Of a DNA stretch of 64,000 nt, positions 17,926-24,251 are shown piece by piece. The DNA comes from Zoogloea sp. (GTDB lineage Bacteria > Pseudomonadota > Gammaproteobacteria > Burkholderiales > Rhodocyclaceae), in contig NZ_JAQVCN010000025.1 in NCBI RefSeq assembly GCF_028689785.1, positions 319-64,318 of the forward strand, written 5' to 3'. The first letter of the stretch is position 1. Each line of letters begins with the position of its first letter. The translations under genes were made by a program, and so were the position numbers. The notes under the pieces were generated by a model. The model worked only from the letters and a program-made list of their open reading frames with translations, had not been told where the DNA came from and ran no database searches.

Positions 17926-18726
17926 ATGTCCGACTCCTCGCCCGTTCTCTCCGCCCTTTACCGCTACCCCGTCAAGTCCATGCGTGGGCAGCGCCTGGAT
18001 GCCAGCCCGGTCAGCCCCCTGGGCCTGCCCTTCGATCGTATGTGGATGGTGGCTGATCCGTCCGGCCGCTTCGTGACCGGGCGTGACTACCCGGAGTTGG
18101 TCCTGATCGATGCCCATCCCTCGGCGCTCGGGCTGACGCTCTCGGCGCCAGGTAGGGAGGCCCTCTTCGTGCCCAATAGCGCCTTCACCGAAGTCTGCGA
18201 GGCCACTGTGTGGGGTGACCGCTTTGCTGCCTGGGAGGGGAGCGCCGAGGCGGCAGACTGGATCTCTGCCTACATCGGGGCGCGCCTCAAGCTTCTGTGG
18301 ACCGGCGCCAAGACGGTACGCCGCGTCAAGGTCGATGACAGCGTGCCTTTGTCCTTCGCCGATGGCTATCCGCTGCTCATCATCGGCCAGGCTTCCCTTG
18401 ATGACCTCTCCGCGCGCCTGGGGCACCCGCTGGCCATGGCGCGCTTTCGCCCCAACCTCGTGGTCTCCGGGGCGGAGCCCTTCGCTGAAGACGGCTGGAA
18501 GCGCATCCGCATCGGTTCCGCCACCTTTCGCATCGCCAAGCCCTGCGAGCGCTGCGTATTCACGACAGTCGACCCGGAGACAGGTTACAAGGCCCTGAAC
18601 CAGGAGCCTCTCCGAACCCTGGCCAAGTACCGCAAGACGCCCGAGGGGGTGATTTTCGGGCAGAACGTGATTGCCGAGGGCAGCACCGAATTGCAATGTG
18701 GAATGCCTGTGGAAGTGCTTGAGTGA
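17926..18726 (+). CDS. MOSC domain protein (YcbX N-terminal / mARC-like)
   Basis: LYRYPVKSMRG, FDRMWMV, SFADGYPLL, RFRPNLVV, KPCERCVFTTVDP. Confidence 0.93.
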   Translation: MSDSSPVLSALYRYPVKSMRGQRLDASPVSPLGLPFDRMWMVADPSGRFVTGRDYPELVLIDAHPSALGLTLSAPGREALFVPNSAFTEVCEATVWGDRFAAWEGSAEAADWISAYIGARLKLLWTGAKTVRRVKVDDSVPLSFADGYPLLIIGQASLDDLSARLGHPLAMARFRPNLVVSGAEPFAEDGWKRIRIGSATFRIAKPCERCVFTTVDPETGYKALNQEPLRTLAKYRKTPEGVIFGQNVIAEGSTELQCGMPVEVLE

Positions 18727-18845
18727 CGAATTTCCCTCCCTTGGCTGGGGGAGGGCGAATCAGCGTTTAATTAATTAGCAATTTCTGATGTATTGGATTT
18801 TCCAATCCGGGTTCCCTGAAATTGGCTGGAAATGGGTCTCCAGCC

Positions 18846-18859
18846 TTGATCTCAGTCAA
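18846..18859. promoter_or_regulatory. FNR/Dnr-type box
   Basis: TTGAT-CTCA-GTCAA, one mismatch from TTGAT-N4-ATCAA, about 110 bp upstream of the cytochrome cluster. Confidence 0.65.
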
Positions 18860-18968
18860 AACCAGGGCAATTAACTGCATCGATTTATCCTATGCAAAAA
18901 AACAGGAGCCGATAATTCCCCGGTCAGCCAACAGGGGAATTCAAGTGTTCGGGAATCTTGGAAAAAAG

Positions 18969-19916
18969 ATGCGTGGTGCCATGGCACTGCTGGCTTTGCT
19001 GGCTGCACCAATGGCCTTTGGCGATGATCCACCTCCTACCCCCGAAGAGCTCGTGAAGATCCGGGCCGCCAATGCCGAGTGCCTCAGCTGCCATTCGGAA
19101 GCGGGGCTCAAGAAACCCCCCAAGGAAGGGATGGATCTCAAGAAGCTGCGCAGTCATCTGGTCCACCTGGATACCTTCACGGCATCAGATCACGGGCAGA
19201 TGGCCTGTACCAAGTGCCATGGAGACGGCTATGCAGAACACCCCCACGCCGCCGACGCCAAGGACGAAATAGCGGAATGCCAGGACTGCCATGCCCGCAA
19301 GGCCATGCGCATCGAGCGCCAGTTCGACAAGTCGGTGCATGCCGAAAACCTGAGCGATACCTTCACCTGCAAGACCTGCCATGACGCCCACACCATGGCC
19401 CTGGCAAGCAAGCTGCGCGACCCCCACAAGATCGTGGCCCAGGACAACAAGATCTGTCTTGACTGCCATGACTCCGATCTGGCCTTTGCCAAGATGGCTC
19501 CGGACAACAAGAAGCGTCCGCCCATCGACGACATTCACGCCTGGCTGCCCAACACCCGCCTGCACTGGAAGGCAGTGCGCTGCGTTGAATGCCACACCCC
19601 CACCGAAGACAAGCTCTCCCTGTCCCACGAGATCCAGAACAAGGACAAGGCGGAGAAGAAGTGTGCCAGTTGCCACAGTGCCAACTCATCGCTCAACGCA
19701 CGTCTCTATCGCCATCTGCAGGCCGAGGAGCAGAACAAGTACGGCTTCCTCAACAGCGTGATGCTGAGCAGTTCTTATGTAGTCGGTGCAACCCGCAATC
19801 CGACCCTCGACAAGGCCTTGATCGCCCTGTTCATTGCCACTGTGCTGGGCGTCATCGGCCATGGCATCGTCCGCATCATCACGACCCGTCTGCGTCGGAG
19901 AAAGAACCATGACTAA
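18969..19916 (+). CDS. Heptaheme c-type cytochrome with C-terminal membrane anchor (CbcA-like architecture)
   Basis: Seven CXXCH motifs (CLSCH, CTKCH, CQDCH, CKTCH, CLDCH, CVECH, CASCH); signal peptide; C-terminal TM containing His. Start could be 18981. Confidence 0.88.
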   Translation: MRGAMALLALLAAPMAFGDDPPPTPEELVKIRAANAECLSCHSEAGLKKPPKEGMDLKKLRSHLVHLDTFTASDHGQMACTKCHGDGYAEHPHAADAKDEIAECQDCHARKAMRIERQFDKSVHAENLSDTFTCKTCHDAHTMALASKLRDPHKIVAQDNKICLDCHDSDLAFAKMAPDNKKRPPIDDIHAWLPNTRLHWKAVRCVECHTPTEDKLSLSHEIQNKDKAEKKCASCHSANSSLNARLYRHLQAEEQNKYGFLNSVMLSSSYVVGATRNPTLDKALIALFIATVLGVIGHGIVRIITTRLRRRKNHD

Positions 19917-20523
19917 TCGCGTCTTCATGCTGCCCCTGTGGATACGCCTGTGGCACTGGAGCAATGCCCTGGCGATCATCGTGCTGTCGATCACAGGCAT
20001 CAGCCTGCATTTTTCCGATCCCAGCCTGCCCTTGGTGGAGTTTTCCCTGGCGGCCCGCATCCACAACATAGCCGGCGTCTGCCTGGCGGTGCTCTATGCC
20101 GGGTTCGTGATCGGCAATATCGTCACCGGCAACTGGTGGCAGTACGTGCCCAAGCCACCTGGCATCATCAAGCGCTGCCTGCGCCAGATGCAGTTCTATG
20201 GTTCGGGCATCTTCAAAGGTGAGGCCGAGCCTTTCCCGCCGACTCCGGAAGTCAATTTCAACGCCCTGCAGGCCGTCACCTACTGGTCCATCATGTATCT
20301 GGTGATGCCGGTGGTGATCCTCAGCGGGCTGGTCTTCCTCTATCCCCAGTTCGCTCCGGCCACCCTGTTCGGCCTCGACGGCCTGCTGCCGGTGGCGCTG
20401 GTGCATTACCTGGGGGCGGCGGTGATCCTGCTGTTCATGGTCAGCCATATCTACCTCGGCACCATGGGGCCCAAGGTCAGCAGCCTGTTCAAGATGATGT
20501 TCACCGGCTGGTATGAGCATTGA
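19909..20523 (+). CDS. Di-heme cytochrome b (FdnI/HyaC-like, CbcB-like)
   Basis: Four TM helices; RLWHWSNA, ARIHNIAG, LVHYLGA, VSHIYLG; overlaps the upstream stop by 8 bp. Confidence 0.88.
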   Translation: MTNRVFMLPLWIRLWHWSNALAIIVLSITGISLHFSDPSLPLVEFSLAARIHNIAGVCLAVLYAGFVIGNIVTGNWWQYVPKPPGIIKRCLRQMQFYGSGIFKGEAEPFPPTPEVNFNALQAVTYWSIMYLVMPVVILSGLVFLYPQFAPATLFGLDGLLPVALVHYLGAAVILLFMVSHIYLGTMGPKVSSLFKMMFTGWYEH

Positions 20524-20575
20524 GCCACCGGCTCCGATTTACCCAACCTAAACACCATCCTCAAGGAGAGTTCAG

Positions 20576-20932
20576 ATGAGATTCACCCTGCAAGCCCTTG
20601 TCCTTGGCGGTCTGTGCAGTACCAGCCTGTTCCTGTCGGCCCAGGTCCACGCCCAGGCCGTTGATGCGGACGCCGCCCAGGCTCTGGCCAAAAAGGAGGG
20701 CTGCCTCAAGTGTCATGCCCTCGACAAGAAGAAGGAGGCCAAGTCCCTCACGGACATCTCCAAGTCGCTGAAAGGCAAGGCTGACGCCGAAGCCAAGCTT
20801 GTGCATCACCTGACCTCCGCCGAGATGGTCAAGTTCGATGACGGCAAGGAAGAAGAGCACAAAGTGCTGAAGACCAAGGACAAGGCCGCCATCAAGAATC
20901 TGACGGACTGGATTTTGTCCCTCGCCAAGTAG
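20576..20932 (+). CDS. mtoD: Monoheme periplasmic cytochrome c, MtoD-like
   Basis: CLKCH; KGKADAEAKLVHHLTS...KFDDGKEEEHK...IKNLTDWILSL closely follows my recollection of Sideroxydans MtoD, including the distal His. Confidence 0.75.
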   Translation: MRFTLQALVLGGLCSTSLFLSAQVHAQAVDADAAQALAKKEGCLKCHALDKKKEAKSLTDISKSLKGKADAEAKLVHHLTSAEMVKFDDGKEEEHKVLKTKDKAAIKNLTDWILSLAK

Positions 20933-21000
20933 TACCCGCAGGACAGGCCCCGACTTGCCGGGGCCTGGTGGAAACCGATAGCAGGATCAGGGAGAAAAAA

Positions 21001-21987
21001 ATGAAAGTCTTGCGACAGTTGTTTGCCTCGTGCCTCGTGCTCGGGGCCCTTGCCGGTTCGCCCGCCGCCCTCGCGGCCGATGCGCCGGCCGCCAGCGCAG
21101 CCAAGCCCCCCGCAAAGGATCTGGTCCTGAAGGGAGATGCCAAGTGCACCAGTTGCCATGACGAGTCTGATGAACCCAAGCTCCTGCACATCGGCAAGAC
21201 CAAGCACGGCACCCTGGCGGATGGCCGTACACCCAGCTGCACCAATTGCCACGGTGAGAGTGACCTGCACACCAACAACCCGCAGAAGCTCAAGGATCGC
21301 CCGGCCACTGACCGTAACTTCAGCAAGACTTCCCGGCTGACCGCCGAGGAAAAGAGCGCCGCCTGCACCACCTGCCACCAGGGTGGCAAGCACATGAACT
21401 GGAACACCAGCGCCCACGCCAACCGCGATGTGGGCTGCACCTCCTGTCACCAGGTGCATGTGGCGAAAGACAAGGTGCGCGACAAGCGTGCCCAGGCCGA
21501 GGTCTGCTACACCTGCCACAAGCAGCAGCGTGCGGAGACCAACAGGCCCTCGCATCACCCCATCCCGGAAGGCAAGATGACCTGCTCCGACTGCCACAAC
21601 GCCCACGGCTCCGCCGGGCCGAAGATGCTGGTCAAGGACACCACCAACGCCACCTGCTATACCTGCCATGCCGAAAAGCGCGGCCCCTTCGTGCATAACC
21701 ACCAGCCGGTCGTCGAGGACTGCGGCAACTGCCACAACCCCCACGGCACCACGGCTGAAGCCATGCTCAAGGCCCGCCAGCCCTTCCTCTGCCAGCAATG
21801 CCATGCCGACGCCTCCCATCCGGGCAACGTGCCGGCCATCCGCGCCAACATGCCCAATGCCGTCAGCAGCAACATCGGCCCGGGCTATGCCCAGGCACGC
21901 GGCTGCGCCAACTGCCACACCAATGTGCACGGCAGCAACAGCCCGAGCAATGCGACGTCCAGCGGACCCTTCCGCTTCTTCCGCTGA
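21001..21987 (+). CDS. mtoA: Decaheme c-type cytochrome, DmsE/MtrA/MtoA/PioA family
   Basis: Ten CXXCH motifs; HAEKRGPFVHNHQPVVEDCGNCHNPHG; CANCHTNVHGSNSPS; GGAG before ATG 21001. Confidence 0.93.
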   Translation: MKVLRQLFASCLVLGALAGSPAALAADAPAASAAKPPAKDLVLKGDAKCTSCHDESDEPKLLHIGKTKHGTLADGRTPSCTNCHGESDLHTNNPQKLKDRPATDRNFSKTSRLTAEEKSAACTTCHQGGKHMNWNTSAHANRDVGCTSCHQVHVAKDKVRDKRAQAEVCYTCHKQQRAETNRPSHHPIPEGKMTCSDCHNAHGSAGPKMLVKDTTNATCYTCHAEKRGPFVHNHQPVVEDCGNCHNPHGTTAEAMLKARQPFLCQQCHADASHPGNVPAIRANMPNAVSSNIGPGYAQARGCANCHTNVHGSNSPSNATSSGPFRFFR

Positions 21988-22002
21988 TCGAGGAGAGGGA
22001 TC

Positions 22003-24138
22003 ATGAGCACGCAATCCATTTTCAGGCCGACCATCCTTGCCATCGCGCTGGCGGCGGCCTTTCCGGCTGCCTCCGCCTGGGCTGATGACGAGATCTCCGA
22101 GCTGACCTCGCCCAACACGGCCGAGGCCGCCATCAATCTGCCCTACACCGACAAGATCAATCCCCTGTACCGGCAGTACGACGGGGTGAACAACGCGGGC
22201 ATCAATGCCAATGCCGATCTCGACTATGTGCGTCGCAAGGACGCCGAGTGGTTCCGCATCAACGCCCGTAACCTGGGCCTGCGCACCCAGGAGATGGGCA
22301 TCTCCTACGAGAAGCAGGGCGACTGGTCGATCAGCCTCGACTACAACCAGATTCCCCGCTACAGCCCCTACCAGGTGAGCACGGCAGTCAGCGGCGTGGG
22401 CAGCACGCGCATCGTCCAGCCCGACATCGCCAACACCGCGGCAGCAGCCAACAACGCCAACCTGTACGACGTCACCCTCAAGACCGAAAGGGAGATCACC
22501 ACCCTGGCGGCCAGCAAGTTCCTGATGCCAGGGCTCAAGCTCGGCTTCACCGTCAAGAACGAGGACAAGACGGGCACCCGCCTGAGCGGCGTGCGCGGCG
22601 TGACTGGCAGCGGGGCCACGCCGGCCAACATCTACAGCGCCTTCCTGTTTGCACCCGAGCCCATCAACCAGAACCACAAGCAGCTGGAAGCCACGGTGGA
22701 ATACACCACCGAGAAGTACCAGCTGGTTGCCGGCTACTACGGCAGCTTCCTGGGCACCAAGCAGAACGCCCTCACGGTGGTGCCTGGCACCAATACCGCG
22801 CTGGTGGCGGCCAACCTGTCACCCATCGCCCTGGCACCGGACAACTCCGTGCAGCAGTTCTACGTGACGGGCGCCTACAACTTGTCCAAGGATACCCGTG
22901 CCAATCTGAAGGTGGCCTGGTCCGAAGGGCGGCAGGATGACGCCTTCCTGGTGGGCCAACCCACCTTGGCCGGCATCGGCGGCAACCTGAATGCCAAGGT
23001 TCAGACCACCGAGGTCTATTCCGCTGTTACGTCCCGCCTGACCCGCGACCTGAAGCTGCTCGCGTCGTGGCGCTATGAAGACCGCCAGGACAAGACGCCG
23101 GTGCGCATCTTCGGCACATCCACCAGCAACGGCGTGACCACCAACTACTACAACAATCCCGAATCCCACACTGCCAACTGGGGCAAGCTTGAGGCCAGCT
23201 ACAGGCTGGGGGCGGGCTTCAACCTGACCGGCGGTTTCGACTACACCAACAAGAGCAGCAAGGAGTGGGAGCGTCACGATGTGTCCGAGCTGACCTCCCG
23301 CATTGCCGTTTCCCGCAGCATGGGTGAATCCATCAACGGTACCCTCAGCTTTGCCCACGCCGAGCGCAAGGGTTCTGAATGGAACAACGGCATTACGCCA
23401 CCCATCCTTCCGGTGTACCTGGCTGACCGCAACCGGGACCGTGTCCGCGGCATGCTCGACCTGGCAGCTACCGAAAACCTGAATCTCCAGTTTGCTTACG
23501 AGGCCTATTTCGAGGACTACAACAAGAGCAGCTACGGCCTCGACAAGGGGCAAGGGCAGATCTTTTCGGTGGATGGCAGCTACGCCATCAGCGACGTGTG
23601 GAAGCTCAATGCCTGGTACACCAAGCAGAACGGTGAAACCCGCCAGTACGCTCAGGGCGCGGTGTGTACCACCGGCAACAGCAGCAACTGCACGGTCAAT
23701 ACCTTCCGCACCGGTACGCTGGTGCAGTGGGATGCTAACCTCAAGCAGGACTCCGACCAGTTCGGCCTCGGCCTCAATGGCCGGATCAGTCGGGTGGACG
23801 TGGGCGCCCAGCTGTTGATCTATCAGGACGTGAACAAGCAGGAAGTGAGCAAGATGCCGACCACCACCTGCACCAACGCCAGCTGTTCGACCACGGGCAC
23901 GGTGGCGGCCGCCATGGGCATCCTGCCCGACACCAAGTACACCCAGAACACCCTCAAGCTGTTCGGCATCTATCCGGTGAGCAAGGCGACTCGCGTGCGT
24001 CTCGACTACATCTACGACATGCGCAAGATGGACGACTACACCTGGAGCAACTGGGTGTATGCCGATGGTACGCGGGTGTATGTGAAGCCGGAACAGACCA
24101 CCCAGGTGATCGGCCTGTCCCTGCTGCACTCCTTCTGA
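22003..24138 (+). CDS. mtoB: MtrB/PioB/MtoB outer-membrane beta-barrel (porin for the decaheme cytochrome)
   Basis: 711 aa, signal peptide, NLGLRTQE, PEPINQNH, LAPDNS, beta-strand pattern, C-terminal Phe; directly follows the decaheme gene. Confidence 0.9.
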   Translation: MSTQSIFRPTILAIALAAAFPAASAWADDEISELTSPNTAEAAINLPYTDKINPLYRQYDGVNNAGINANADLDYVRRKDAEWFRINARNLGLRTQEMGISYEKQGDWSISLDYNQIPRYSPYQVSTAVSGVGSTRIVQPDIANTAAAANNANLYDVTLKTEREITTLAASKFLMPGLKLGFTVKNEDKTGTRLSGVRGVTGSGATPANIYSAFLFAPEPINQNHKQLEATVEYTTEKYQLVAGYYGSFLGTKQNALTVVPGTNTALVAANLSPIALAPDNSVQQFYVTGAYNLSKDTRANLKVAWSEGRQDDAFLVGQPTLAGIGGNLNAKVQTTEVYSAVTSRLTRDLKLLASWRYEDRQDKTPVRIFGTSTSNGVTTNYYNNPESHTANWGKLEASYRLGAGFNLTGGFDYTNKSSKEWERHDVSELTSRIAVSRSMGESINGTLSFAHAERKGSEWNNGITPPILPVYLADRNRDRVRGMLDLAATENLNLQFAYEAYFEDYNKSSYGLDKGQGQIFSVDGSYAISDVWKLNAWYTKQNGETRQYAQGAVCTTGNSSNCTVNTFRTGTLVQWDANLKQDSDQFGLGLNGRISRVDVGAQLLIYQDVNKQEVSKMPTTTCTNASCSTTGTVAAAMGILPDTKYTQNTLKLFGIYPVSKATRVRLDYIYDMRKMDDYTWSNWVYADGTRVYVKPEQTTQVIGLSLLHSF

Positions 24139-24180
24139 GCGGAGTCGCCCCCCTCCGGGCGGCGGCTGCCGCCCACCATG

Positions 24181-24212
24181 CAAAAAGCCCCGGCCTAAAC
24201 CGGGGCTTTTTG
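24181..24212. terminator. Bidirectional terminator
   Basis: CAAAAAGCCCCGG-CCTAAA-CCGGGGCTTTTTG between convergent mtoB and ettA. Confidence 0.9.
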
Positions 24213-24251
24213 CTGGCCTGTGAGGTGCTACAGGCCCGGCGCTTCAGCGGA

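Follow-up and report, generated by a model that had tools for sequence, protein, structure and literature searches.

Gene content of the cluster

The window analysed here, a stretch of 64,000 nucleotides from a Zoogloea sp. genome, carries five co-oriented genes (18969-24138, + strand) for a heptahaem cytochrome c, a dihaem cytochrome b, the monohaem cytochrome MtoD, the decahaem cytochrome MtoA and the outer membrane porin MtoB. We consider it likely, with a probability of about 0.72, that they encode one trans-envelope electron conduit, made of two modules and connecting the quinone pool with the cell surface. The same five genes had been delimited in a first-pass annotation of this DNA; all of the open reading frames (ORFs) are intact at these coordinates, and a recount of the CxxCH motifs (7 + 1 + 10) returned the 18 c-type haem motifs that it had listed. 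The genes are as follows:

18969..19916, + strand: heptahaem cytochrome c, CbcA-like, periplasmic; 315 aa, Sec signal peptide, seven CxxCH, C-terminal transmembrane (TM) anchor
19909..20523, + strand: dihaem cytochrome b, CbcB/PhsC-like, putative quinone-reactive subunit; 204 aa, PF01292, four TM helices
20576..20932, + strand: MtoD, periplasmic monohaem class I cytochrome c; 118 aa, one CxxCH, match to PDB 4XXL with E 1.1e-29
21001..21987, + strand: MtoA/MtrA-family decahaem cytochrome c; 10 CxxCH, TIGR03508 with 277 bits (cut-off 192)
22003..24138, + strand: MtoB/MtrB/PioB outer membrane porin; 711 aa, PF11854 with 407 bits, TIGR03509 with 310 bits (cut-off 240)

The last three genes belong to well-defined families. 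By sequence, the product of the third gene is a true MtoD homologue: its match to 4XXL, the MtoD of Sideroxydans, spans residues 12-116, with the CLKCH and HH motifs aligned, and mtoD is present in a single copy in the genome. MtoA scored 240 bits against the MtrA of 6R2Q (chain A), and MtoB matched chain B of the same structure with an E value of 3.3e-31. An alternative GTG start of mtoA is found at 20968, and mtoB, the sole MtrB/PioB porin gene of the genome, starts 15 nt past mtoA.

The heptahaem protein (hereafter c) has a single predicted TM helix at residues ~283-301, followed by an Arg/Lys-rich tail. His298, located in this anchor helix, and all seven haem motifs were invariant across 15 homologues. 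Pfam returned only generic c3/c7 and paired-CxxCH matches, and the NapC/NirT profile PF03264 reached 24.0 bits (cut-off 24.1) over a short stretch only; the protein is not an N-terminally anchored tetrahaem cytochrome of PF03264, as CymA and ImoA are. Chain A of PDB 28pb (278 aa, seven CxxCH) aligned to the heptahaem family with an E value of 1.6e-9 and the same motif order. This entry, labelled only 'Cytochrome c', may be a solved CbcA-like domain, to judge by the alignment; a literature search found nothing relevant on its code.

The second gene product (hereafter b) matched PF01292 with an E value of 2.9e-24 and scored 162 bits with the NCBIfam model for PhsC (thiosulfate reductase cytochrome b), under the cut-off of 204. 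Five histidines (His16, 34, 52, 166 and 180) were conserved across 74 homologues, and His166 and His180 lie 14 residues apart in helix 4. No solved structure related to b was detectable by sequence in the PDB. A wider representative search returned relatives from Magnetococcales, Bacteroidales, Aquipluma and a Thermodesulfobacteriota metagenome-assembled genome (MAG) (~37%). The stand-alone b of Aquipluma nitroreducens (Prolixibacteraceae) shares 36% identity with the Zoogloea protein (E 2e-50), and cbcBA homologues were reported in that lineage by Joshi et al. (10.1101/2021.04.15.440034). The ATG of the b gene lies upstream of the stop codon of the c gene, with an overlap of 8 nt. Natural c-b fusions of 500-550 aa are frequent among the relatives, which argues that c and b form one complex.

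Haem proteins elsewhere in the genome

The host genome of the window (5.08 Mb, 98.8% complete, with the window on contig 28) is poor in multihaem cytochromes. A genome-wide count of CxxCH motifs yielded only five ORFs with at least three of them: MtoA, the heptahaem protein, an octahaem-TPR protein, a fusion of monohaem domains and NapC. The last of these is the sole PF03264 (NapC/NirT) protein of the genome and is encoded in napH-napB-napC on another contig, so that the earlier statement that a CymA is missing holds for a dedicated CymA. The absence of an MtrC-type surface cytochrome was likewise borne out: TIGR03507 matched nothing in the cluster or elsewhere in the genome (98.8% complete), so that no outer decahaem of the OmcA/MtrC family was found genome-wide. 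The genome search also found no second MtrB/PioB porin, no second b, no second MtoD and no EB_dh protein. In its own genome, the c/b pair has no visible partner except MtoD and MtoAB. Nar was considered as an electron sink and rejected, as a genome search for NarI was negative. The octahaem-TPR gene is located on contig 35 (L003:4630-6822), directly 3' of a sulfatase gene, and encodes a 730-aa protein with eight CxxCH (c554/c7-like) fused to C-terminal TPR repeats.

Distribution and gene neighbourhoods

Relatives of the heptahaem protein were searched in ~185,000 species genomes and were found in 323 of them, and gene neighbourhoods were taken from the best 80 loci of these 323 genomes. At every locus with enough flanking DNA, the c and b genes lie side by side. 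Context classes were counted on 72 loci, and the tree of c and b holds 37 MtoD-linked rows, the window included. The first-pass annotation had proposed a neighbourhood survey together with trees of the c/b pair and of MtoA/MtoB, and the survey returned two main contexts. One has mtoD following b (36 of the 72 classed loci), and MtoAB is encoded within 8 kb in 30 of those 36. The order c-b-mtoD-mtoA-mtoB is that of Zoogloea, mtoA-mtoB-c-b-mtoD is found in Propionivibrio, Uliginosibacterium and others, and divergent or spaced arrangements occur elsewhere. The other context has an EB_dh haem-domain protein encoded 3' of b (30 loci, in other Beta- and Alphaproteobacteria), usually with a histidine kinase and a sigma-54 response regulator 5' of the c/b pair; a molybdopterin oxidoreductase gene is present at six loci of this type. 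A sigma-54 regulator was detected near the pair in 24 of the 72 classed loci, all of them without MtoD and MtoAB nearby. The loci that combine c/b, EB_dh (PF09459) and the two-component genes (L037-L084; for example, L056:9584-10687 and L054:6378-7832) represent an uncharacterised operon type. In the c+b tree, the MtoD-linked pairs cluster (3 label changes, against 24.8 expected by shuffling) and are nested inside the EB_dh/sigma-54 type.

Rhodocyclaceae were surveyed in an even sample of 401 genomes. An MtrB/PioB porin was present in 116 of them and the heptahaem gene in 28, lying within 6 kb of an MtrB/PioB porin gene in ~20 of these 28. In this family, mtoD comes next after the pair, and MtoAB or MtrCAB is usually a neighbour. 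Among 16 further Rhodocyclaceae loci, every published inner-membrane option beside Mto was represented, namely none, a CymA/ImoA-type protein, an MtoC-type protein and the c/b pair. In one genus, the c-b-mtoD trio stands beside MtrC-bearing MtrCAB conduits, and MtrC (TIGR03507) is present in the relatives L087, L097 and L098.

Apparent exchange of the outer conduit

The Zoogloea c/b pairs form one tight clade in the c+b tree. In the proposed MtoA/MtoB tree, Zoogloea MtoA and MtoB fall into two deeply separated clades, with MtoB only ~31% identical between them. Despite these two MtoAB types, the genes for c, b and MtoD are 70-98% identical across the Zoogloea loci L005-L025. Both MtoAB types occupy the same syntenic locus, between mtoD and a gene for an ABC-F protein, and the MOSC and ABC-F flanks are kept. 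With one c/b clade, two deep MtoAB clades and syntenic flanks, the outer module has apparently been replaced in place while c-b-mtoD was retained, and the trees indicate that the inner and outer modules evolve independently.

A broader reading, which we put forward tentatively, is that c, b and MtoD are a portable module of the inner membrane and periplasm, with MtoD as its dedicated partner. In Rhodocyclaceae, such a module might plug into interchangeable outer conduits (the two deep MtoAB clades and MtrCAB), the conduits being swapped in place and the trio staying fixed.

Non-coding elements and flanking genes

Three non-coding elements accompany the genes:

18727..18968, + strand: upstream intergenic region, presumed promoter region; 242 nt between the MOSC gene and the haem gene
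20936..20971, + strand: intercistronic stem-loop between mtoD and mtoA, without a U-tract; GC-rich, hairpin position conserved
24180..24213, bidirectional, no single strand: intrinsic terminator; 14-bp GC-rich stem, A-tract on one side and U-tract on the other

A scan of 18727..18968 found neither a sigma-70 consensus site nor a site of the sigma-54 type (TGGC-N8-TGC). The terminator that had been placed at the cluster end was recovered past mtoB as a hairpin with an A-tract and a U-tract. It is common to mtoB and the convergent ABC-F gene (z = -4.7 for a 131-nt stretch), and its U-tract side was also picked up in a separate scan. The neighbours of the cluster encode a MOSC protein, a subtilase, a DnaE2-like polymerase and the ABC-F protein. 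Within 18001-24000, the G+C content drops from 0.66-0.68 in the flanks to 0.60-0.62 over the cluster, and the sign of the GC skew flips together with the switch of coding strand.

The 79-nt stretch 20925-21003, which includes the mtoD/mtoA stem-loop, has a minimum free energy of -26.5 kcal/mol, a value for the whole stretch and not for the stem-loop alone. The hairpin occurs at the same position in 16 Zoogloea loci with differing stem sequences, and compensatory changes were found at 8/8 predicted pairs. A possible role lies in mRNA stability or attenuation, by which it would set the expression ratio of the inner and outer modules.

Relation to known electron conduits

Geobacter CbcBA consists of a seven-haem c with a C-terminal helix that supplies a His and of a separate four-helix dihaem b, and it adjoins a sigma-54 regulator; CbcB is usually annotated as thiosulfate-reductase-like, and menaquinone is the donor named (10.1101/2021.04.15.440034). 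Compared with the published description of the Geobacter sulfurreducens proteins (GSU0593/GSU0594), the Zoogloea genes are adjacent in the same way and encode the same architecture. The order of c before b, as read from the GSU0594/GSU0593 locus tags, suggests the same arrangement as in the window. On architecture and indirect similarity, the pair thus resembles CbcBA. The likeness to CbcBA drawn in the first-pass annotation stands for the architecture (seven haems, a His in the TM helix, a four-TM b) and does not extend to the sigma-54 regulator; such a neighbour is seen in many of the non-Mto relatives and not at the Zoogloea locus. Unlike Geobacter, the host is a betaproteobacterium of the ubiquinone type, and the genes associated with its pair are those of MtoD and MtoAB, not those of the Geobacter periplasmic and outer membrane cytochromes. 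A literature search on rhodoquinone in Zoogloea found nothing.

The Mto cluster of Sideroxydans lithotrophicus ES-1 (MtoA, MtoB, MtoD, ImoA/CymA and PmcA) shares with Zoogloea the MtoD, the decahaem MtoA, the porin MtoB and the lack of MtrC. It differs in its inner module, a NapC/NirT tetrahaem instead of a c/b pair, and in PmcA, since a second monohaem gene resembling PmcA is missing from the Zoogloea cluster. Good descriptions exist of Mto clusters that contain CymA/ImoA and of others that contain a fused MtoC (PMC5566968, PMC6295460). In mtoABCD of Gallionella ES-2 and Dechloromonas aromatica RCB, as in Zoogloea, an Mto conduit is combined with a module of multihaem c and PF01292 b. MtoC, of the CbcL family, is one fused protein, however, for which six TM helices and nine haems were published; in the Rhodocyclaceae MtoC proteins examined here (L086, L092, L094 and L095), 5-6 TM helices were predicted and 8 CxxCH were counted. 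The Zoogloea cluster had earlier been called a hybrid, and if this meant that a b-containing module beside Mto is unprecedented, MtoC as a published partner in Gallionella ES-2 and Dechloromonas RCB speaks against it. We found no paper that names a CbcBA-type module beside Mto.

The gene cluster itself is already known. A Zoogloea MAG from an anode biofilm (Biofilm 2021) was reported to contain a five-gene cluster for an MtrB/PioB porin, a DmsE-like decahaem, a b-type cytochrome, a heptahaem c and a further c-type cytochrome, and this MAG rose from 0.01% to 7.2% of reads, a 720-fold increase, on an anode at +400 mV (PMC8258643). The authors stated that the last three genes had 'no characterized homologues' (PMC8258643). 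Matched by gene description, the window cluster has the same genus and gene set. Loci with 97% identity were found in Zoogloea MAGs, which supports the assignment of the host to this genus. Added here are the identities of the genes in the cluster, the survey of its relatives and the evidence that modules were exchanged.

Proposed mechanism and alternatives

In the conduit that we propose, genes 1-3 would form the inner module, a quinone oxidoreductase of the CbcBA type whose four-helix dihaem b exchanges electrons with the quinone pool. The two stacked b haems would lead to the heptahaem c, kept against b by its C-terminal helix with the conserved His, and MtoD would be the soluble periplasmic partner. 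Genes 4-5 would form the outer module, in which the decahaem MtoA runs through the MtoB porin and takes electrons across the outer membrane. We draw on the assignment of MtoD, MtoA and MtoB to their families, on how c and b are built and conserved, on their strict adjacency with natural fusions, and on the recurrence of the trio beside Mto or Mtr conduits. From this arrangement we infer quinone binding by b, a bridging role of MtoD between the modules and co-transcription of the genes.

Several observations weigh against a single conduit of this kind. The AlphaFold2 model of the heptahaem protein, built with 15 sequences, reached a pLDDT of 48.8 and a pTM of 0.30, too poor to be used. The conserved hairpin between mtoD and mtoA could mean that expression of the two modules is uncoupled. 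In Sideroxydans ES-1, MtoD (+155 mV) interacts with neither MtoA nor ImoA (PMC13390432, 2026), which makes its role as a shuttle uncertain. Finally, in the Rhodocyclaceae genome G139, c-b-mtoD and an mtoA-mtoB pair that lacks mtoD are located on separate contigs (L099 and L100), a split that suggests that the trio is a unit travelling together.

Alternatively, the trio might work as a self-standing quinol:cytochrome c module for periplasmic sinks or sources and lie next to mtoAB with no functional link to it, a reading that we regard as improbable. Half of the relatives have no MtoAB nearby, and their c-b genes occur instead with EB_dh, with a sigma-54 two-component system or, at six loci, with a molybdoenzyme. 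The hairpin between mtoD and mtoA, the replacement of the MtoAB type within Zoogloea beside an unchanged c-b-mtoD and the lack of MtoD-MtoA binding in ES-1 could all be read in the same way. Against this, co-location with an MtrB/PioB porin recurs in several orders and orientations and in at least eight genera, and the MtoD-linked c/b pairs form clades of their own. Moreover, mtoD is a standard component of Mto clusters, and the genome encodes no other multihaem partner for MtoAB. A different explanation, that the c/b pair is a split MtoC/CbcL, is very unlikely. Both combine multihaem c with PF01292 b beside mtoAB, and the haem domains align weakly (24%), but identity between b and the b domain of a Rhodocyclaceae MtoC is as low as 23% (pairwise E 1e-5), and the stand-alone Prolixibacteraceae b is closer. 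The Zoogloea proteins also have four TM helices versus 5-6, and seven CxxCH versus 8 in Rhodocyclaceae MtoC or the 9 published, and CbcBA is not homologous in sequence to CbcL according to Joshi et al. (10.1101/2021.04.15.440034). We therefore rejected the split-MtoC reading on both sequence and architecture (two genes, seven haems and four TM helices).

Direction of electron flow

The caveat of the first-pass annotation that the direction of flow cannot be given by the sequence is upheld. Its lean towards uptake, argued from the absence of MtrC and the presence of MtoD, is weak in view of the enrichment on an anode, the trio beside MtrC conduits and an ES-1 MtoD that binds neither MtoA nor the quinone module. 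The circumstantial evidence leans outward, and we slightly favour oxidation of quinol with export of electrons to an anode, Fe(III) or humics.

The physiological job of the same hardware might instead be uptake, with electrons from Fe(II), reduced humics or a cathode passing through MtoAB and MtoD to the c/b pair and the quinone pool. MtoA, MtoB and MtoD were named from the Fe(II) oxidiser Sideroxydans, MtrC is absent, and the Nap and NapC of the genome could drain the resulting quinol. Dihaem b proteins of the FdnI/HydC type usually reduce quinone with electrons from the periplasm. With a quinone site on the cytoplasmic side, as background on b proteins of the FdnI/HydC/PhsC type would suggest, inward flow would be electrogenic and would need a low-potential donor, and outward flow would cost proton-motive force. 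We nevertheless find uptake rather unlikely, and clearly less probable than export. It was an oxidising anode, and neither a cathode nor Fe(II), that enriched the Zoogloea with this cluster (PMC8258643). Geobacter CbcBA, the architectural relative, is needed for the export of electrons to extracellular acceptors of low potential (10.1101/2021.04.15.440034), which points to quinol oxidation. The trio also stands beside MtrC-bearing MtrCAB conduits in one genus, the potential of ES-1 MtoD is too high to feed a quinone reductase, and a heterotroph has no need for reverse electron flow. Bidirectional use takes the small share of probability that remains after export and uptake.

Implications for Zoogloea and for Mto conduits

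The three unnamed genes of the cluster reported from the anode biofilm (PMC8258643) would correspond to MtoD and a CbcBA-type pair. Such a c/b pair would be a third inner-membrane option for Mto and Mtr conduits, beside CymA/ImoA and MtoC. If the portable trio is real, it would also answer the question of what MtoD partners with physiologically, given that neither ImoA nor MtoA binds it in Sideroxydans. Among the floc formers of wastewater plants, Zoogloea is a dominant genus, and it has been met repeatedly on bioelectrodes; a defined conduit would make this behaviour accessible to genetics. The cluster is carried by cultured Zoogloea such as Z. oleivorans Buc and Z. oryzae NBRC 102407, and a heterotrophic host of this kind, likely easier to grow than iron oxidisers, could serve to determine the role of MtoD and the direction of flow.

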